Shown one piece after another: positions 1,998 to 44,185 of a DNA stretch of 57,550 bases. Position numbers and translations under genes: made by a program. Positions within the stretch are counted from its first letter, which is position 1, and each line of letters begins with the position of its first letter. The notes below the pieces were generated by a model. The model saw nothing but the letters and a program-made list of their open reading frames with translations, had not been told where the DNA came from and did no database searches. This stretch comes from Candidatus Dojkabacteria bacterium (GTDB lineage: Bacteria > Patescibacteriota > Dojkabacteria > JAFGLO01): the NCBI GenBank assembly GCA_016927995.1, contig JAFGLO010000001.1, forward strand, positions 1 through 57,550. The letters run 5' to 3'.

Positions 1998-2017
1998 TTG
2001 GTTGGTTGTTAGTTATT

Positions 2018-2045
2018 CGTAGGGACAGGTTTTAACCTGTCTTTA
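2018..2045. repeat. REP-like palindromic repeat, degenerate copy
   Basis: cgtagggacaggttttaacctgtcttta. The stem pairs fully on the plus strand if G-U pairs are allowed. It shares the CGTAGGGACAGG arm with the other copies. Confidence 0.7.
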
Positions 2046-2135
2046 ATACCAACCAATGTTATCAGATTACAAGGATATATTTAAGGGGCCAATATTCACA
2101 TGATGACAAAATTGCCAATTACAAATCGGGAAAAC

Positions 2136-2163
2136 AGAGACAAGTTAAAAACTTGTCCCTACG
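2136..2163. repeat. REP-like palindromic repeat, degenerate copy, inverted relative to 2018-2045
   Basis: agagacaagttaaaaacttgtccctacg. Its reverse complement, cgtagggacaagtttttaacttgtctct, matches the family arm. Confidence 0.7.
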
Positions 2164-2191
2164 GCTACGGCATTTCGTCAACGGTGACCCG

Positions 2192-4738
2192 TTATCCGGT
2201 TGAATTCACGGTAACTCGTCCCCTATCGACCGTAATTGGCAATTCAACCCGCTTTGACCCAATTGGCGAACCATTTTCAATAATATAATCAGCAATAACG
2301 GTTTCAAGATTCCGCTGAATGGCCCTTCGCAAAGGTCTTGCGCCATATTCCTGATCAAACCCTTCCTTTAAAAGAAGCTTTCGCACTTTATCGTCAATTT
2401 TTACTTTGATCCACTGATCGGCAAGTCTTTCATTAAATTCTTTAACCAAAATGTCGATAATTTTACCAACCTCGGGCTTTGTAAGCGGCTTAAACACTAA
2501 AATCTCGTCGAGTCTGTTTAAAAGTTCGGGCTTTAAATAAGCCTTAAGTTCCGAAAGAAGCTTCTCCTTTACACTTTCGTAGTCCCACTCGGGCTTTTCG
2601 TCTTCCAGTGCCTTAAAGCCCACGGTTCCACCAACTTTAAGCTGATCAATTCCCACATTAGAAGTTAATATAATAACAGTGTTTTTAAAGCTCACCTTAT
2701 TACCCTTGCCATCGGTAACATGACCATATTCCAAAACCTGAAGCAAAATATTAAGAACGTCTTCATGTGCTTTTTCTATTTCATCGAACAATACAACAGA
2801 GTAAGGATTATTCTTGACTTTTTCCGTAAGCTGGCCACCCTCTTTATACCCAACATACCCCGGAGGAGACCCAATAAGTTTGCTCACACTGTGCATTTCC
2901 ATAAGTTCACTCATATCAATCTGAATCAGCCGATCGCTATCACCAAATAACTCTGTTGCCAAACTCTTGGCTAGTTCAGTTTTACCAACACCTGTAGGGC
3001 CTAAAAACAAAAATGAAGCCCATGGACGCTCTGCATCGGAAATACCGGTCCGTCCACGTTTTATAGCCTCGGAAACACGTTTAACTGCCTCGGCTTGCCC
3101 AATAACCCGTTTTGATAATACTCTATCTAAGTTTTTAAGCGCGGATGACTCTTTTGTAGTTAATGTGGACACAGGAATTCCTGTCCAGTCGGAGATTACA
3201 CTTCGAATCACATCCTGAGTAACAACTTTTATGTTTTTAACACTTTTATCCTTTTGAACCTTAAGCTCTGTCATATATTTTTTCATATTTTCTTCCATCA
3301 CACGCAGATTTTGAGCAGCCAACAAATCCCCTTTATTTATTGCCTCTTCTTTTTCCAGAATAAGCTTTCTAAAATCCTCCTCAACCACTCCAAGATTGGT
3401 CTTCTGTTCTGCAATTATTTTTACTGTTGCACAAGACTCGTCCAAAAGATCAATTGCTTTATCGGGCAAGTTACGGTCACTTACATACCTATCGGACAAC
3501 CTAACGGCAGCTTCAACTGCTTCTTTTTCAATTTTTACCTTATGATGATTCTCCAAGAGATCCGATAATTTTGTTAAAATCCCAACAGATTGCTTAACAG
3601 AGGGCTCGTCAATAAATACCGGTTGGAACCGCCTATTAAAAGCTGTATCATCCTCGAAAATACTTCGGAATGCGGCTGTTGTGGTAACTCCAATGCAACG
3701 GATTTGACCGCTTGTAAGCTCGGGCTTTAAAATGCTTGCAATATCTGATCCACCTGAAGAAGCTGAACCCGCAGACAAAAGTGTGTGAATATCGTCGAAG
3801 AACAAGATAACATTAGGACTTCGTTGAGCAAATTTAAGGATTGCCATAACCTTTTCCTCAACATCACCCCGCATATTACTACCTGCAACAATTTTATTGG
3901 CATTAATTCGAAATACTCTAAAGTCCTTAAGTGATACCGGTACCATATTTTGAGAAATCCGCTGAGCCAGCCCCTCAATTAATGTCGTTTTACCAACACC
4001 GGGTTCACCTACAATAAGTGCATTGTTCTTTTTGCGCCTTGCTAGAATATTTACAAGTTTTTCAAGCTCGACCTCGCGACCAATTAAAGGATCAAGCTTT
4101 CCTTTTTCGGCAAGTAGGGTTAGGTCATCGCCAAAGGCTCTAAGCACTGGTGGAATCTTGCCATCCCCCGGAGCTTTTCCTGTTAGAATCCCTTCGGGAT
4201 ATGAAATAAAATCCAAAACCAATCTTTTTGCCGACTGCTCGCTTATACCAAGTTCGGAAAGTTTGTTAACAAGTTTGGTTTTACGTTTAAGTGAGGCCAG
4301 AAACAGATGCTCGGTTCCAACGTAAATATGATTAAACTGACGTGCGATTCTATATGCGTCAACAAGCAGATCTTTTATCTCGTTGGATATTACTATTGAT
4401 TCCGAGGCTTTAGGTATCTTCTTGGCTATCTCAGCAAAATCTATGGACACGGCTGTATATCCCCAAAGCAGTTTTTCTTTATCGAACCCTATGGCAGAAA
4501 GCATGCGCGATACAATACTGTTGGGATTTACTACAACAGCACGAATAATATCATCTATCGAAATTTCTTTCCGCTTTCCATGAATAGCAAATAAACTAGC
4601 AATATAGAAAGAAATCAAGGCATTGTTACTTAATCGATTAAACGGATTTACCTCTCTAGGTCTTAGCGCCATTTTAGCAATGTCAATTAATAAGTGCCAA
4701 GATATTGTAACATACGTAGGGATAGATTTTAAACCCAC
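2192..4738 (-). CDS. clpC: ATP-dependent Clp protease ATP-binding subunit (ClpC/ClpA class, two AAA+ modules)
   Basis: Two Walker A motifs (GEPGVGKTT and GPTGVGKTE), a Clp-N-like N-terminus, a short middle domain and a VGF tripeptide that may form the ClpP-docking loop. The true start may be the internal Met at 4672 (MALRPREV...). Confidence 0.85.
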   Translation of the reverse strand: MGLKSIPTYVTISWHLLIDIAKMALRPREVNPFNRLSNNALISFYIASLFAIHGKRKEISIDDIIRAVVVNPNSIVSRMLSAIGFDKEKLLWGYTAVSIDFAEIAKKIPKASESIVISNEIKDLLVDAYRIARQFNHIYVGTEHLFLASLKRKTKLVNKLSELGISEQSAKRLVLDFISYPEGILTGKAPGDGKIPPVLRAFGDDLTLLAEKGKLDPLIGREVELEKLVNILARRKKNNALIVGEPGVGKTTLIEGLAQRISQNMVPVSLKDFRVFRINANKIVAGSNMRGDVEEKVMAILKFAQRSPNVILFFDDIHTLLSAGSASSGGSDIASILKPELTSGQIRCIGVTTTAAFRSIFEDDTAFNRRFQPVFIDEPSVKQSVGILTKLSDLLENHHKVKIEKEAVEAAVRLSDRYVSDRNLPDKAIDLLDESCATVKIIAEQKTNLGVVEEDFRKLILEKEEAINKGDLLAAQNLRVMEENMKKYMTELKVQKDKSVKNIKVVTQDVIRSVISDWTGIPVSTLTTKESSALKNLDRVLSKRVIGQAEAVKRVSEAIKRGRTGISDAERPWASFLFLGPTGVGKTELAKSLATELFGDSDRLIQIDMSELMEMHSVSKLIGSPPGYVGYKEGGQLTEKVKNNPYSVVLFDEIEKAHEDVLNILLQVLEYGHVTDGKGNKVSFKNTVIILTSNVGIDQLKVGGTVGFKALEDEKPEWDYESVKEKLLSELKAYLKPELLNRLDEILVFKPLTKPEVGKIIDILVKEFNERLADQWIKVKIDDKVRKLLLKEGFDQEYGARPLRRAIQRNLETVIADYIIENGSPIGSKRVELPITVDRGRVTVNSTG

Positions 4739-22195: not shown

Positions 22196-22636
22196 ATGAG
22201 ACTAGTAGAACAATCAGCTCAGTCAATAATAGATACAGAATTTCCAGACTTTGAAGGCGAGAAAAAACGCGGCTTAGTTTATGGATTACGCTTAGTAGAC
22301 ACGGAGCTCTCTTTAGAGCAAAAAATACACTTGAAAGCACCCGAAATTTCAATTAACCTTAGTAGGAACATGCTTGCTGCTCTCACACGACTAAAAGATG
22401 AAGCGATAACTCCAGACAATGGACCTTTTAATCCAGATTTTTTTCAGGGAAGTAATACGGCCGCTGTTTTAGGTGAACGATTTCTCAAAGAAGGTAAGCA
22501 CCCTGATTCAGATAAAACCCAAAGACTTTCAATATTAAGGATTCTCCTACTGGATATTAGTAAAACATTAGACCCGGATCGCTCTATTGAAACGGAAATA
22601 AACGAAGGTATAGACGCTAAAATGTTAAGTAAATAA
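22196..22636 (+). CDS. hypothetical protein
   Basis: 146-aa ORF with an ATG start and no recognisable motif. Its 3' end overlaps the uvrA 3' end by 12 nt (convergent). Confidence 0.4.
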   Translation: MRLVEQSAQSIIDTEFPDFEGEKKRGLVYGLRLVDTELSLEQKIHLKAPEISINLSRNMLAALTRLKDEAITPDNGPFNPDFFQGSNTAAVLGERFLKEGKHPDSDKTQRLSILRILLLDISKTLDPDRSIETEINEGIDAKMLSK

Positions 22637-25576
22637 CATCTTCCCAGTCCAGCTTTCCTTACAACTCTTTAACCCCTTTAAATCCCCCTGATACAAAATG
22701 TTTCCACCCTCGTCACCACCTTCTGGCCCAATATCAATAATGTAATCGGCAAGCTTAATAAAGTCCAAATTGTGTTCGATAACTACTACAGTATCACCCC
22801 TTGCAACAAGCGTCTTTAGCACCACCAGTAGATTTTCCATATCGGCAAAATGAAGCCCTGTTGTAGGCTCGTCAAGAATATAAATGGTACGCCCAAATGT
22901 TTTTCTATCAAGCTCCGAAGCAAGTTTAACCCGCTGTGCCTCACCACCTGATAAAAGCGGCGCAGGTTGACCAAGTTTCATATACGAAAGTCCTACGTCC
23001 TTCATAAGCGAAAGTTTCTCACGAATATTAGGATGAGCATCAAAAAAGTTAATACCCTCTTCAATAGACATATCTAAAACATCTGCAATATTCTTGTCTC
23101 GATAACTAACATCCAAAACCTCCTTGATATAACGCTTTCCGTGACACACCTCACAATCAACATAAACATCCGGCATAAACTGCATTTCAATTTTAATTTG
23201 ACCTTCACCTTTACACGCTTCACACCTACCACCCCGCAAGTTAAAGCTAAATCTGCTTTTGTTAAACCCACGAACTTTAGCGTCCCTGGTAAGCGCAAAA
23301 ACTTCACGAATGTCATCAAACACTTTTGTATATGTTGCAGGATTGCTCCTTGGAGTACGTCCAATTGGAGATTGATCAACAAAAACAACTCTATCAAGCT
23401 TTCCATACCCCGATATCTGTTTGTATACACCAGTATTGTCAACATTTCGGTATCCAAGCGATTCCTTAAGTGCGGGAAGCAATGTCTCGATAATAAGTGA
23501 ACTTTTCCCTGATCCCGAAACGCCTGTTACACAAGTAAATTTTCCAAAAGGAATTTCAACATCTACACCCTTCAGATTATTAGTCTTTGCCCCTTCCAAT
23601 ACAATCATTGCATTACTGTCATGTTCAAATGTTGAATCCTCATTAATTTGGGACTTAATTATCCGTTCAACATTACGCTTAACATCCTCAATTCCGGAAA
23701 GATACGGACCGGTAACGGAACTCTTATTACCCATAATTTCTTTCGGGGAACCCTCTGCTATAACTTTTCCTCCATGAACACCTGCTCCCGGGCCAAAATC
23801 AACGATATGATCTGCGCTTAGAATTGTATCTTTATCATGCTCGACCACAATAACTGTATTCCCCAACTCCCTAAGATTTAAAAGTGTATTTACAAGCCGA
23901 TGCTGATCTCTTGCATGAAGTCCTATCGAAGGCTCATCTAAAACATATAAAACACCGGTTAGACCAGTACCTATTTGGCTGGCAAGTCGAATTCGCTGTG
24001 ATTCACCGCCCGAGAGAGTAATAGAGGAACGATCTAGAGTTAAATACGATAATCCAACGTCTAAAAGAAACTTGGCTCTAGCCGAAATTTCTTTAAGCAC
24101 ACTTTGTGCAATTGCACGCCCCTGGGTATCTAGCTTTTCCGGCAAATTTACAATATGTTCGTAAAATACATCTATTGGGTAAGCCGTGATTTCGGCAATA
24201 TTTTTGCCATCAATTGTGACCATCCGAATCTCTTTTTTAAGCCTTGTGCCTTCACAAGTTTCACAGGGAATACTTGTCATATACTGTTCAATTTCACGCC
24301 TTATGTAGTCCGAACTTGTTTGGGCATATCTACGCTCTAAATTAGGAATAAGCCCTTCAAACTTTGAATTATACTGCCGCTCTTCATCTAAATCCTTTCT
24401 GTAAAATGTGATTCTAAAAATCTCTTTACCTGTTCCATATAATATTTTGTCTAGTTTTTCTTTTGGAATTTTGCCTACGGCATTTTTAAGCGGAATCTCA
24501 TATCGTTTTGCAATTTCTAAAAGCACAGACATTGTCCAACTATCGGGACTAAGCTTTGCATAAGGAATAATCCCCCCATCCAAAACCGACTTATTTGGAT
24601 CAAGAAGCTTACGCTCGTCGATCCGCCTTATAAATCCTAATCCCGTACAAACAGGACAGGCACCGTGCGGAGAGTTAAACGAGAAGTGTCTAGGTTCAAA
24701 TTCAGGAAGAGAGAGAGAGCATTTTCGGCAGGTTCTGCTTGTACTGTAATCAATTTCTTTAAGATAATTTGGGGAATCAGGAAACATTTGGGTTTTGTCC
24801 CCTACAGGAAGTACCCTTATAAACTTACTTTCTATTTTTAGTGCATTGTCAACAGCTTGGAAAAGCTTTGATCTTAGGTCTTTTTCGTCCTCCTTAAGGG
24901 TAAATTCGTAAATGTCAAAATCATCGGTTATTACCTCAAGCGTGTGCCGTTTGTTCTTGTCAGGTACCGGGATTGCCTCCATAAGATTGTATAGAATCCC
25001 GTCAAGTCGAACCTTTTCCCACCCCTGCTTTTTAAGCGATTTAAATAATGCGGAGTACTCACCTTTTTTATCCACAATCGGAACAGCTACTATGCTAAAT
25101 TTGTAACCAAAGCGATCTGAATCTTTATCGGTTTTTAAGGTATCTTTTGCCGCAGTTAAGATGTTATCAATAATCTGATCAACTGTTTGAGGCTTAAGCT
25201 CGTCACCGCAAATTGGACAGTGCGCAATACCTATTTTGGAATACAAAAGCCTTAAGTAATCATATATTTCGGTAGTGGTACCAACCGTTGAACGTGGATT
25301 GTGCGAAACGGTTTTTTGGTCAATTGCTATTGCGGGTGAAAGTCCATCAATTCTATCTACATCGGGCTTTTTAAGTACACCTAAAAACTGTCTTGCATAC
25401 GAACTTAAACTTTCCACGTATCTTCGCTGGCCTTCAGCATAAATTACATCCATTGCCAAAGATGATTTACCGGAACCCGAAAGTCCTGTAAATACAATAA
25501 GTTTATCCTTTGGAATTGAAACCGTTATGTCCTTTAAATTGTTTTCACGTGCACCGTGAACAGTAAGTGTATTCAT
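22625..25576 (-). CDS. uvrA: excinuclease ABC subunit A
   Basis: Two ABC modules (GLSGSGKSS and GVSGSGKSS), LSGGE signatures and zinc-finger Cys clusters. 983 aa is the canonical length. Confidence 0.97.
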
Positions 25577-25659
25577 AATTTGCTATGGGGAGAATATATC
25601 AGAAAGACAGGTTATCAATCAATTTGTCTAACTGGCCTGCGGGACAATTATACACGAAA

Positions 25660-25992
25660 TCGTAGGGACAGGTCTAGACCGACACATACAATTGTAAAGA
25701 TATATAAGATATGAAATCAGGGACACTGGACTGATGGTCTATACTGCGTGCGGGTGTTAAGTATTACTTAAGTTTTAGAGCTTACGTATAGTGAGTTAAA
25801 GTAACATCAGGACGGCTTATGACTTCGTTAGGACTCTTTGTTACATTGGAAATCCAATGATGGATTTGCAAGGAGTAGATCTACAACATGCAATCTTGTC
25901 GATCTTTGCACACACCCGCACACCCATTTTGTGAATCAACCATCAGGTAAGTGTTCCACAATACCCATGTCGGTCTAGACCTGTCCCTACGA
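25660..25992. other. rod-like nested-helix element (candidate structured ncRNA or MITE) flanked by a split REP-like palindrome
   Basis: Four nested helices: 24-25 bp perfect (25661-25684 / 25968-25991); 8 bp (25720-25727 / 25950-25957); 8 bp (25731-25738 / 25939-25946); 10 bp (25748-25757 / 25912-25921). There is also an internal hairpin, 25850-25856 / 25861-25867. No credible ORF. Confidence 0.6.
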
Positions 25993-26021
25993 AGGATTGA
26001 ATAATTATTGTATACTAGCGA

Positions 26022-26582
26022 ATGGCCAAAATATTTGTATTTAGACATACAGAAACACTTGATAACAGAAACCATATTTTTTCTGGTCATCGTGATGTGC
26101 CAATAACAGAAGAAGGTGCAAAAGATGCAAAAAAGCTTGCAAATCGTCTAAAATCCGAAAAAATACACTACGCCTTTTGCTCTCCAATGATTCGAACCCG
26201 ACAAACCCTTAAGATAGTACTAAAATATCATCCCAACGTAATAACCTGTCTTGATCCAAGAATATCCGAGCGTAGCTATGGTCTGTTGCAAGGCAAAAAT
26301 AAGGACAAATTTGCAAAACTTGCCTACCCGCTCTTTAAGCTTTTTCACCGATCGTTGCATTTTCCGGTTATGGGTGGCGAAAGCCTCAGTACCGTCCGAA
26401 AAAGAACCCTCCCATTTGCAGCCGAAATCGAGGACTTGACACTAAAAACTGGCAGAAATATAGTAATCTGTGCTCATGGTAATTCGATCAGAGGGATTCG
26501 TGAACACTTTGAGCGCCTTCCCCCAAGTCAATTTAACAAGATTGAAACAAGAGTCGGGCAACTATTTGTATATACGGTTTGA
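26022..26582 (+). CDS. histidine phosphatase family protein (phosphoglycerate-mutase-like, branch 1)
   Basis: N-terminal FVFRHTETLDN (a variant of the RHGE catalytic motif) and a later CAHGNSIRG (second catalytic His). 186 aa, TGA stop. Confidence 0.7.
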   Translation: MAKIFVFRHTETLDNRNHIFSGHRDVPITEEGAKDAKKLANRLKSEKIHYAFCSPMIRTRQTLKIVLKYHPNVITCLDPRISERSYGLLQGKNKDKFAKLAYPLFKLFHRSLHFPVMGGESLSTVRKRTLPFAAEIEDLTLKTGRNIVICAHGNSIRGIREHFERLPPSQFNKIETRVGQLFVYTV

Positions 26583-28710: not shown

Positions 28711-28739
28711 GTAGGGGTCGGTTTAAACCCGTCCCTACG
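28711..28739. repeat. REP-like palindromic repeat
   Basis: gtaggggtcggtttaaacccgtccctacg has 14-nt arms around GTTTAAAC with two G-U pairs and one mismatch. It is immediately followed by (GTAAGAA)3 at 28739-28759. Confidence 0.8.
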
Positions 28740-28760
28740 TAAGAAGTAAGAAGTAAGAAG

Positions 28761-30821
28761 TTATTTGGTGTCCCACCTATATACCCCATCCCAATCATCG
28801 GGAAAATGATTATTCCTTATTCGTTCAATTAATGCTTTTGCTGCTCCATCATACTTTAATAGCTTAAAAACCTTAATTGCATCATTGAATTTTCCGGATT
28901 GATATAACCTAAGACCCTCTACATAAGCCCGTCTTAATATCACGTTTCGCCTTGTGTTAAACATAGGTTCAAAGATTTTAATTGACCTATTCTTTCCTTT
29001 AACAAGTATTTCGTCGATTTGTCTAAATATGATTGCGTCATGACTAACACAATCCTTTACCGTTTCCGTTACTAAAATCGGAACATTATATTTCTTTGTT
29101 AAACCTTCCACCCTCGAAGCAACATTAACATTGTCTCCGATTACGGTATAATCAAATCTGACTTTACTGCCAATGTTTCCTACAACCATGGGCCCGGTAT
29201 GCAATCCAATGCCAATTCGTATTTCTACCCCGTGCTTATTCTCATCATTGAATCGCTTTAAAGTATCAACCATTTGCATTGCTGTCACCACCGCCTTTAG
29301 GCAATGTTTTTCATCGAATACCGGAGCATTCCATATTGCCATTATGCAATCCCCTATATATTTATCGATTGTCCCGTCATTTTTTATTATTATCTTACTC
29401 ATTGTGTCTAAATAGTCATTTGTCAGACTTACTAATCTTTCCGGTGCTATCTCCTCGGATATGGTGGAAAATTCACGTATATCATTAAACATTACAGTCA
29501 TTATACGTTCTTCACCACCAAGGTTTAATTCTTGTTTGCTTCTCATTATTTTTTTTAAGAGATCTATATTCAGATAGCACGAAAACGCCTTTCTAATGAA
29601 AGAGTTTTCCAAGTAAGCCTTGGCTGAATTAAAAAATGTGAAGTAAACATATGTTGTAAATATTAATAATGAACCCTGAACAAAATACCATCCGCAACCA
29701 TAACAAGAGCACAGTATTCCTAAAAGGTTAAACCCCAGAAAAAAAGTAATCCAGAGCCATAATGATTTAAAGAAGTTTCGGCCTTCAGTTAACCTTGCGA
29801 CTACAAGAAGTACTACAACAAGCGAAAGACTAAAAAGCAGATATGAAGGATATACAATAAATGATTCCCTTAAAAACGCATTTATATAGGAAGCAAAAAT
29901 ATAAATCTCGGGAAACCCCTTACCATTTACGTTTACAACATGATCATCCAAAAAGGCATTTACCCCTGTTGTCATAGTTCCCACAAGCACTATTTTGTCT
30001 TTGAAGGTATTCTGATCAAATTTGTCCTCAAGAACGTCTACAAAACTCACCGTCTTAAATTCATTTTTTGGAAAAATCGGCATAAACACATTGTCGAGTT
30101 TCTTACCCGAACTTAATGTTATTCCATTTGAACAAGTTGCCTGCCCCACCTCGTCTTGATATTTGCGAAACACTGCATATGCCAAACTTTCGTTACACTC
30201 CGATCCGACCTGGGTCGCTATAGTTCCTCTCCGAACCCGCCCATCGGCATCTATTGGAATATTTGAATAACCGTATGTAATATTTTCGCCCGAAATCGTT
30301 GGATTCACGATTGTATCTTGGAAAATCCTCGAAGCAAAAACCAAATCATAATCTACCGAAGTTAAGATCTCATTAACAAGATAGTCATCTGCCGTTTCAT
30401 TAAACATTAATAGATCAAAAGCAACTACTTTGGGTGAATATTGTGAAAGTTTCTGTACCAATGTCGAATACAAACTTTTATCTAACGGCCACTGATTAAT
30501 TATTTCAAGTGATTTGTCATCGATTCCAATTATCACAATTTCGTCACCAGGTTCATTTTTGACCTGTAATGAATCCCCCAAAAAACTGTTAATCTGCTCT
30601 ACAAAGTGGATATTAGTTAACAAGTAAACGAAAACCGCAACAATAACTATATGTATATATAAAGCATGCTCTTTTGAGAATTGGATAAATTTGGTCCACC
30701 ACTTATTGGGATGTCCGTTGTTAACCTGGATCTTTTTCATTCTCATCCTGTAAAAAATCACTAACGAATACTTTCTGTTCGCCCGGAAAACCAACCTACT
30801 GCTTACACTCAATGTTAACAA
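28761..30821 (-). CDS. CHASE2 sensor domain-containing class III adenylate/guanylate cyclase
   Basis: The N-terminal TM and extracytoplasmic region plus a block of 3-4 TM helices fits the CHASE2 layout. Cyclase core motifs: TVMFNDIREFSTISE, KYIGDCIMAIWNAP, GLHTGPMVVGNIG, YTVIGDNVNVASRVEG. The start is more likely Met-26/28 (30746 or 30740). Confidence 0.8.
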   Translation of the reverse strand: MLTLSVSSRLVFRANRKYSLVIFYRMRMKKIQVNNGHPNKWWTKFIQFSKEHALYIHIVIVAVFVYLLTNIHFVEQINSFLGDSLQVKNEPGDEIVIIGIDDKSLEIINQWPLDKSLYSTLVQKLSQYSPKVVAFDLLMFNETADDYLVNEILTSVDYDLVFASRIFQDTIVNPTISGENITYGYSNIPIDADGRVRRGTIATQVGSECNESLAYAVFRKYQDEVGQATCSNGITLSSGKKLDNVFMPIFPKNEFKTVSFVDVLEDKFDQNTFKDKIVLVGTMTTGVNAFLDDHVVNVNGKGFPEIYIFASYINAFLRESFIVYPSYLLFSLSLVVVLLVVARLTEGRNFFKSLWLWITFFLGFNLLGILCSCYGCGWYFVQGSLLIFTTYVYFTFFNSAKAYLENSFIRKAFSCYLNIDLLKKIMRSKQELNLGGEERIMTVMFNDIREFSTISEEIAPERLVSLTNDYLDTMSKIIIKNDGTIDKYIGDCIMAIWNAPVFDEKHCLKAVVTAMQMVDTLKRFNDENKHGVEIRIGIGLHTGPMVVGNIGSKVRFDYTVIGDNVNVASRVEGLTKKYNVPILVTETVKDCVSHDAIIFRQIDEILVKGKNRSIKIFEPMFNTRRNVILRRAYVEGLRLYQSGKFNDAIKVFKLLKYDGAAKALIERIRNNHFPDDWDGVYRWDTK

Positions 30822-34057: not shown

Positions 34058-34086
34058 AAAGAGTTCCTTGGTAAACTAAGTTGTTG

Positions 34087-34232
34087 CCCCTGCCCCTAGC
34101 CCTTAGGGTAAAATCAGATGTCCCCGTGTGTACCGCCAGCTGTACTTAGTACTACTAGAAACTAGGTAAAATCTGTGAAATCAACGGGCATTGTCAACTA
34201 GCTGATTTTACCCTAAGGGCTAGGGGCAGGGG
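34087..34232. repeat. 31-bp perfect inverted repeat flanking an 84-nt spacer (long hairpin or MITE-like element)
   Basis: cccctgcccctagcccttagggtaaaatcag (34087-34117) is the exact reverse complement of 34202-34232. The element is GC-rich in an AT-rich gap between convergent genes. Confidence 0.9.
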
Positions 34233-34278
34233 CTATGGGCAGAGACAACAACTGTACAAGTAACAATTAACTACTCGG

Positions 34279-44151: not shown

Positions 44152-44185
44152 TTCGTAGGGACGGGTTTAAACCTGTCCCTACGAA
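44152..44185. repeat. REP-like palindromic repeat, best copy (34-nt palindrome)
   Basis: ttcgtagggacgggtttaaacctgtccctacgaa is self-complementary over its whole length except for one G-U position. Confidence 0.9.

Follow-up and report, generated by a model that had tools for sequence, protein, structure and literature searches.

A rod-like element beside uvrA in a Dojkabacteria contig as a probable DNA insertion at the symmetry axis of a GTAG-type REP

What is the long, rod-like inverted repeat that separates uvrA from a histidine phosphatase gene in a contig of Candidatus Dojkabacteria bacterium (JAFGLO010000001.1, positions 1 to 57,550, the whole 57.5-kb stretch being referred to below as the window): a structured RNA, or a piece of DNA that moved? 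The original prediction, made from this DNA alone, had offered both answers, a novel structured non-coding RNA (ncRNA) or a non-autonomous element that targets repetitive extragenic palindromes (REPs). We find it most likely that the element, at 25661-25991, is the scar of a DNA insertion or a small mobile element, and neither an RNA gene nor CRISPR-related; in particular, we consider it somewhat probable that it arose by insertion or integration, at the DNA level, at the axis of one of those REPs on which REP-associated tyrosine transposases (RAYTs) act. The two neighbouring genes, uvrA (22625-25576, minus strand) and the phosphatase gene (26022-26582, plus strand), diverge from a gap of 445 bp, which is indeed the longest in the window, and the two runners-up (423 and 412 bp) carry no inverted repeats comparable to that of the element. 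The predicted 24-bp inverted repeat, with CGTAGGGACAGGTCTAGACCGACA as its left arm, was confirmed as perfect and in place, and was matched in none of the window shuffles. Each arm contains the 10-nt palindromic word GGTCTAGACC, which occurs in the window only at these two sites (0.02 expected), as a direct repeat with a spacing of 301 nt. The DNA between the two copies has a genome-like G+C content of 39% and stop codons in all six frames, in agreement with the earlier statement that no credible open reading frame (ORF) is present, and neither a protein nor a DNA homologue of it was found. A decayed RAYT or other pseudogene inside it was rejected, tblastn having returned only the REP-encoded peptide. 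Misassembly is unlikely because an independently assembled Logan contig (SRR13394437), the one other sighting of the locus, is identical to it across 5.2 kb.

When an intact REP is written as a-b-C-b′-a′, with CGTAGG as a, GACA as b and GGTCTAGACC as the centre C, the locus reads a-b-C-b ... b′-C-b′-a′. Joining position 25680 to position 25982, by which 301 nt (the insert and one centre) are removed, gives CGTAGGGACAGGTCTAGACCTGTCCCTACG, which is identical to intact copies found elsewhere, for example in locus L212; the predicted junction sequence of an empty site is GAAATCGTAGGGACAGGTCTAGACCTGTCCCTACGAAGG. The same removal leaves a divergent spacer of 144 bp, comparable to the 140-bp spacer that surrounds the intact REP at 44152. 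Because taking out the insert recreates a palindrome that is intact in many genomes, insertion at the palindrome centre with duplication of that centre, as originally proposed, is the best anatomical reading of the locus. The arms are moreover halves of one unit, not two units, since neither of them forms a hairpin of its own, unlike the units of the REP dimer at 2016-2165. The perfect 24-bp inverted repeat, and hence the ‘rod’, is then explained by the target having been palindromic and its halves now lying apart. As any insertion into a palindrome produces such a rod, the result mainly clears away a false lead: the rod should be taken neither for a CRISPR relic nor for a new class of RNA.

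The family to which the arms belong was traced by using the half-palindrome CGTAGGGACNGGTNTARACC as a query against GTDB species genomes and JGI metagenomes. The full palindrome, GTAGGGACAGGTCTAGACCTGTCCCTAC, proved nearly invariant in about 68 low-G+C loci that were fetched, and its hosts in the candidate phyla radiation (CPR) include Magasanikbacteria, Kuenenbacteria, Doudnabacteria, Parcubacteria, Paceibacter and unclassified Patescibacteria, among others, with seven REP hits in the single metagenome-assembled genome MNVC01 and six in JAMDAY01; matches of the half-palindrome in high-G+C DNA were set aside as conserved coding sequence or chance. The initial 20 nt of the left arm are identical to this CPR-wide palindrome, and the palindrome derived from the arms is 28-30 nt long and begins with GTAG, a tag that marks the main superfamily of REPs (PMC3733652). 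Several CPR loci have a RAYT-like gene of about 200 codons flanked by the palindrome, and the product of this gene combines an HUH motif (PNHVHG) with a tyrosine region at its C-terminus, matches NCBIfam REP_Tyr_transpos in two stretches (E = 3e-16), and finds its best PDB match in E. coli TnpArep (4ER8). Such a cognate RAYT flanked by REPs was seen in other CPR contigs (L176, L239, L230, L133 and others; Table 1), and no RAYT gene lies in the window. The GTAG start and the flanked RAYT-like genes therefore identify the arms as halves of a GTAG-type REP whose family is RAYT-associated in other CPR genomes, and like REPs of this type they represent a short tagged palindrome that is multi-copy and predominantly extragenic.

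A further REP copy was located inside the RAYT-like reading frame itself, after the HUH motif and before the C-terminal tyrosine region, and the frame in which it is translated changes from lineage to lineage (giving GRDRSRPVPT, VGRGLDLSLRL or VGTGLKPVPT); it is therefore conserved as DNA and not as protein. GTAG REPs and their RAYT (TnpA-REP) transposases have been described before (Nunvar 2010; Bertels & Rainey 2011, PMC3116915; Di Nocera 2013, PMC3733652; Messing 2012, PMC3479197), and the present system resembles them both in its GTAG-starting, intergenic, multi-copy palindrome and in the Y1 HUH transposase that this palindrome flanks in other contigs. Unlike classical REPs, which are mostly lineage-specific, the CPR REP is nearly identical across several CPR classes, is a perfect palindrome and also occurs inside the RAYT reading frame, and 291 nt interrupt the copy at the present locus. 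We found no paper describing REP/RAYT systems in CPR, and the CPR-wide, near-invariant GTAG REP, with a RAYT that carries it inside its ORF, is the more notable by-product of this analysis; it would bear on the spread and persistence of REP/RAYT systems.

REP variants with a GC-rich hairpin of about 19 nt (CCACCCTAGGCGGAC...) exactly at the axis, with no duplication, were observed at L240 986-1032, L239 ~470-510, L189 ~5468 and L176 1560-1600. Because such hairpin insertions occur at the axis, the axis tolerates insertions in other genomes too; separated arms were found in none of about 110 palindrome-carrying loci, where the axis insertions are short only (19 nt). A further module of about 180-240 nt stands between REPs and is 96% identical in two metagenome contigs (L189 4835-5074 and L176 1603-1783); with a small hairpin and a promoter-like site that is strong (TTGACA-17-TATATT), it may be a small RNA gene adjoining the RAYT.

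Within the window, REPs occupy six intergenic sites (Table 1). Both units of the dimer between clpC and radA have their own hairpin (GACAGGTTTTAACCTGTC and GACAAGTTAAAAACTTGTC), and in the DNA fold of the whole dimer, which has a z-score of −3.2, they come together in one long hairpin. The centres of the resident copies are all T/A-only, five of them being GGTTTAAACC or close variants and the sixth, in the right arm of the dimer, AGTTAAAAACTT. The original prediction had described the arms of the split element as the two halves of this genome's REP-like palindrome, its centre being duplicated; they are of the same family and the centre does stand on both sides, whereas their centre, GGTCTAGACC, differs from the T/A-only centres of the residents.

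Table 1. Positions of the element's parts and of related features (window coordinates, unless a locus is named)
Feature	Coordinates	Strand	Description
Left arm	25661..25684		REP left half CGTAGGGACA + centre GGTCTAGACC + 4 non-REP nt GACA
Left centre copy GGTCTAGACC	25671..25680		Readable as target-site duplication or shared recombination core
Non-coding insert	25681..25971		291 nt (301-nt unit with one centre); ends GACA...TGTC
Inner helix I2, left side	25720..25738		GGGACACT..CTGATGGT; partner 25939-25957; 19 nt, 79% complementary
10-bp perfect helix, left GTGCGGGTGT	25748..25757		Helix of at least 10 bp in 4.5% of shuffles
Central core	25758..25911		154 nt; local hairpins, e.g. 25846-25871
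SpCas9 single-guide repeat/anti-repeat-like stretch	25772..25804	+	33 nt; local alignment score 29
10-bp perfect helix, right ACACCCGCAC	25912..25921		Partner of 25748-25757
Inner helix I2, right side	25939..25957		Partner of 25720-25738
Right arm	25968..25991		TGTC + centre GGTCTAGACC + REP right half TGTCCCTACG
Right centre copy GGTCTAGACC	25972..25981		Direct-repeat partner of left copy
Outward promoter-like site TAGACC-18-TATAAT	25647..25676	-	Towards uvrA; −35-like hexamer inside left arm; 10/12 consensus matches
Mirror-image promoter-like site TAGACC-18-AATAAT	25976..26005	+	Towards phosphatase gene (ATG at 26022); 9/12 consensus matches
REP dimer	2016..2165		Two inverted units 93 nt apart, between clpC and radA
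Decayed resident REP copies	near 4714 and 19533		Intergenic
Near-intact resident REP	28711..28739		38 nt upstream of uvrB
Intact resident REP TTCGTAGGGACGGGTTTAAACCTGTCCCTACGAA	44152..44185		Within 140-bp divergent intergenic spacer
RAYT-bearing loci in other contigs	L176 818-1861 (ORF 872-1480), L239 1290-1969, L230 1-495, L133 489-1013; L152, L134, L188, L190, L197		Palindrome GTAGGGACAGGTC..GACCTGTCCCTAC flanking

Folding statistics locate the pairing that makes up the rod. The whole element folds with a z-score of about −9 on both strands, as RNA or as DNA, and as single-stranded DNA it forms one long hairpin (dG −69 kcal/mol, z = −9.5), a value that is dominated by the arms. For the 283-nt interior without the arms, z was −3.7 on the plus strand and −2.3 on the minus strand, and for the central 154 nt, in which the local hairpin reported earlier is present at 25846-25871, it was −1.09 and −1.01, respectively, as in shuffles. 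Two of the three inner helices that had been predicted are perfect, one of 8 bp (25731-38/25939-46) and one of 10 bp, while the third (25720-27/25950-57) consists of seven Watson-Crick pairs and one G-T instead of eight perfect pairs. Nested helices in the interior that are perfect over 7 bp or more sum to 25 bp, a total reached by only 5/1000 dinucleotide shuffles. The rod is thus made up of the arms and, next to them, two or three sub-terminal helices that enclose a core with nothing remarkable about it. The left side of helix I2 contains the word AGGGACA that also occurs in the REP arm, and, as I2 shares AGGGACA/TGTTCC with the REP, one might speculate that it is a relic of an older split REP.

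Based on this anatomy, we propose that a single GTAG-tagged REP once lay within the uvrA/phosphatase divergent spacer, then about 144 bp long, and that some 291 bp of non-coding DNA would have entered it exactly at its symmetry axis, leaving the 10-bp centre on either side. This could have been a 291-nt insertion at a 10-bp staggered cut, which would give a target duplication, or, formally equivalent, a conservative recombination in which a circle of 301 bp (TGTC-core-GACA) was joined into the REP (GACA-core-TGTC), which would resemble the reaction of attB with attP to attL and attR; the predicted junction of such a circle is an 18-bp palindrome, TGTC-GGTCTAGACC-GACA (CCCATGTCGGTCTAGACCGACACATAC). 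The insert may have come in as a small element that is not autonomous and owes its mobility to a RAYT or a REP-targeting recombinase acting in trans; such an enzyme would recognise the REP stem, which the arms would form again in single-stranded DNA. The sole likely effect on the host would be that the arms supply the −35-like parts of the two putative outward promoters (Table 1). A more specific version, which we hold to be doubtful, is that the insert is a protein-free mobile circle of about 301 bp, a ‘REP with cargo’, that integrates at the axis of the CPR-wide REP through the shared 10-bp palindromic core, the enzyme being provided in trans, either as a RAYT with a REP in its own gene or as an RNA-guided REP-targeting recombinase. 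If this were true, the circle would be a parasite that exploits a REP/RAYT system of the ultra-small CPR genomes. By whatever route it might move, a mobile insert would represent a REP-axis-specific element of very small size, in a lineage whose genomes are tiny and poor in repeats.

Insertions of this kind have precedents. ISRm22 inserts at the axis of REP palindromy with a symmetric direct repeat (Tobes & Pareja 2006, PMC1525189), and our locus is like it in that the REP is broken into two flanking pieces, the direct repeat is centred on the axis, and removal of the insert with one repeat restores the REP; unlike in ISRm22-type cases, there is no transposase gene, the insert measures only 291 nt, a single copy is known, and the duplication is 10 bp, compared with 2-6 bp in the described insertion sequences (ISs) that enter REPs. 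A second parallel is ssr9 of ISPpu9 (IS110 family), a small non-coding module that moves alone into REPs via minicircles and carries at its end a palindrome resembling the target REP (Pares-Guillen 2025, PMC12288879), just as the circle junction predicted here mimics its target. The two share no sequence similarity, however, the recombination core is 2 nt there and a repeated 10 nt here, and the ISPpu9 genome has a DEDD recombinase and several copies, neither of which was seen in the window. A REP-targeting module of the IS110/IS1111 type is accordingly not recognised here, there being no recombinase gene in the window and no RNA model match. Miniature inverted-repeat transposable elements (MITEs) such as Correia and ERIC also resemble the element, which is short, non-coding and intergenic beside promoters, with terminal inverted repeats and a possible target duplication. 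Unlike in MITEs, its terminal repeats are explained by the palindromic target, and neither a parent IS nor a second copy is known; no second copy was found in the window, in 838 kb of fetched CPR loci, in the GTDB genomes (junction only) or in IMG/VR. A 24-bp inverted repeat and a 10-bp direct repeat are present, and splitting a palindrome yields both automatically; beyond them only GACA and TGTC are complementary.

Several observations weigh against an insertion at the REP axis. Only a single copy of the putatively mobile insert is known: with copy number assessed in the 57.5 kb and in public collections, neither BLASTN nor nhmmer revealed a second copy in the window, the 838 kb of CPR loci, or the phage or plasmid collections; 185,579 GTDB species genomes contained no match to the junction on the left of the insert (GGGACAGGTCTAGACCGACA) or to the junction predicted for a circle (TGTCGGTCTAGACCGACA); and neither the circle junction nor three interior words of 18-22 nt had one in IMG/VR. 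The window contains no RAYT, IS110-type or other transposase gene, and an empty orthologous site was not found among the fetched loci of UvrA and phosphatase homologues, which share neither the gene arrangement nor the palindrome. To our knowledge, no nameable IS family fits a 10-bp duplication combined with a terminal complementarity of only 4 bp. The arms, although of the same palindrome family as the T/A-only residents, have a TCTAGA centre, and therefore the whole 331-bp unit might have come together, arms included. Finally, the inner helices exceed chance (p ~0.005), and insertion of plain filler DNA leaves them unexplained. As to the search space for relatives, the source is an isolated CPR lineage: by UvrA it is nearest to Dojkabacteria, with no more than 62-66% identity to any available sequence. 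The closest UvrA homologues are 66% and 64% identical and the closest phosphatase homologues 61-57%, the best among 5.8 billion proteins being 66% and 61%, respectively. A GTDB scan with the helix-4 pattern gave chance matches only, in GC-rich genomes. A phage or plasmid origin was rejected, BLASTN having found no match in the phage and plasmid collections, and so was a replication origin or terminus, as no GC-skew switch occurs at the locus.

The main rival is a REPIN-like unit, in the manner of REPINs and of REP dimers resembling bacterial interspersed mosaic elements (BIMEs), with an oversized spacer, in which the whole 331-bp hairpin would be mobile, copied by a RAYT that recognises the REP stem re-formed in single-stranded DNA, and would have arrived whole. 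The TCTAGA centre, unlike that of every resident REP, would fit such an arrival, as would the folding of the two inverted REP-derived arms into one long DNA hairpin and the enrichment of collinear inner helices, REP dimers with structured spacers being known (PMC3733652), and the window does contain a genuine REP dimer. Even so we think it unlikely: the spacer is 283 nt, compared with the usual 20-100 nt (PMC3733652), the arms are half-units with no hairpin of their own, the window has no RAYT gene, and in place of two complete REPs with a replicating population there is one copy in the window and all collections searched; excision at the duplicated centre, furthermore, rebuilds a perfect single REP, which a unit that arrived whole does not require. 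Less likely again is that two independent REP remnants bracket ordinary promoter DNA and that the inner helices are coincidental. REPs are common in the intergenic regions of the window, and insertion and decay between dimer partners are known (PMC3733652), but both remnants are cut off at the same position, are perfectly complementary over 24 nt, the 4 non-REP nt included, and share a centre type absent elsewhere in the window, with a nested helix total that only 0.5% of shuffles reach.

An insertion at the REP axis is also preferred over the readings that make the element an RNA. A rod-like structured ncRNA gene of about 300-330 nt, expressed from the divergent spacer with the REP halves as its closing helix, is improbable. 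The better folding of the interior on the plus strand, where some of the pairs are G-U, and a weak promoter-like site, GGGACA-16-TACAAT, the only one pointing into the interior, would agree with it. Transcription from this site would, however, start inside the closing helix, so that the RNA would lack the left arm; that helix is a perfect, REP-derived 24-bp duplex, the central 154 nt fold at chance level, and no terminator-like site was found. The Rfam 15 covariance models gave no match at the gathering threshold and only sub-threshold noise at E up to 10, the models for 6S, SRP, RNase P and tmRNA, which the original prediction had likewise failed to recognise, and those for tracrRNA and omega/bridge RNA being among those with no match, and the interior has no homologues in the CPR loci or the phage or plasmid collections. 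The structured-RNA reading is thus weak, and the novel ncRNA that had been suggested is not borne out, with a core that folds like shuffles and REP-derived DNA as the only strong helix. The chance is far smaller still that the element is a guide-RNA scaffold stranded without its protein gene, as a remnant or relative of a Cas9 tracrRNA, an IscB/TnpB omega-RNA or an IS110 bridge RNA. The CRISPR-like words on which this idea was founded, gttttagagct (25772-82) and agttaaagt (25794-802), are present, and the stretch that spans them can be aligned with the SpCas9 single-guide scaffold (11/11 at GTTTTAGAGCT and 7/7 at AGTTAAA) and drawn as a bulged duplex; REPs, moreover, do serve as targets of IS110-type elements, whose non-coding modules can be mobile on their own (PMC12288879, PMC11208160). 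Yet the alignment score of 29 lies only 3-4 points over the best unrelated window tiles (25-26), the shuffle p of 0.0005 per element stands beside about 0.17 such matches expected per window, and the likeness stops before the nexus and the terminal hairpins. The CRISPR-class hits in Rfam are far under threshold (CRISPR-DR17, 22.5 bits with a cut-off of 42; CRISPR-DR2, 16 with a cut-off of 37), no CRISPR array was found in the window, none of its ORFs exceeds 1000 aa, so that none is of Cas9 size, and Pfam detected no Cas, IscB, TnpB, RAYT, DEDD or transposase domain in about 38 window ORFs. The likeness was judged a chance resemblance.

Other features of the window were noted alongside. The REPs at 2016, 4714, 25661 and 28711 lie immediately upstream of radA, clpC, uvrA and uvrB, a noticeable bias towards repair and stress genes. 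An operator of a DNA-repair regulon was considered and rejected, REPs also being present upstream of murA and an ftsA-like gene and absent upstream of uvrC, and the link to RAYT explains them better. The REP copy upstream of uvrB is abutted by a tandem repeat, (GTAAGAA) × 3.3, at 28739-28761. Between two convergent genes, at 34086-34233, lie the 32-bp arms of another perfect inverted repeat (GCCCCTGCCCCTAGCCCTTAGGGTAAAATCAG), separated by 84 nt; its sequence is unrelated to the REP, and candidates for its nature are a bidirectional terminator and a further hairpin or MITE-like element.

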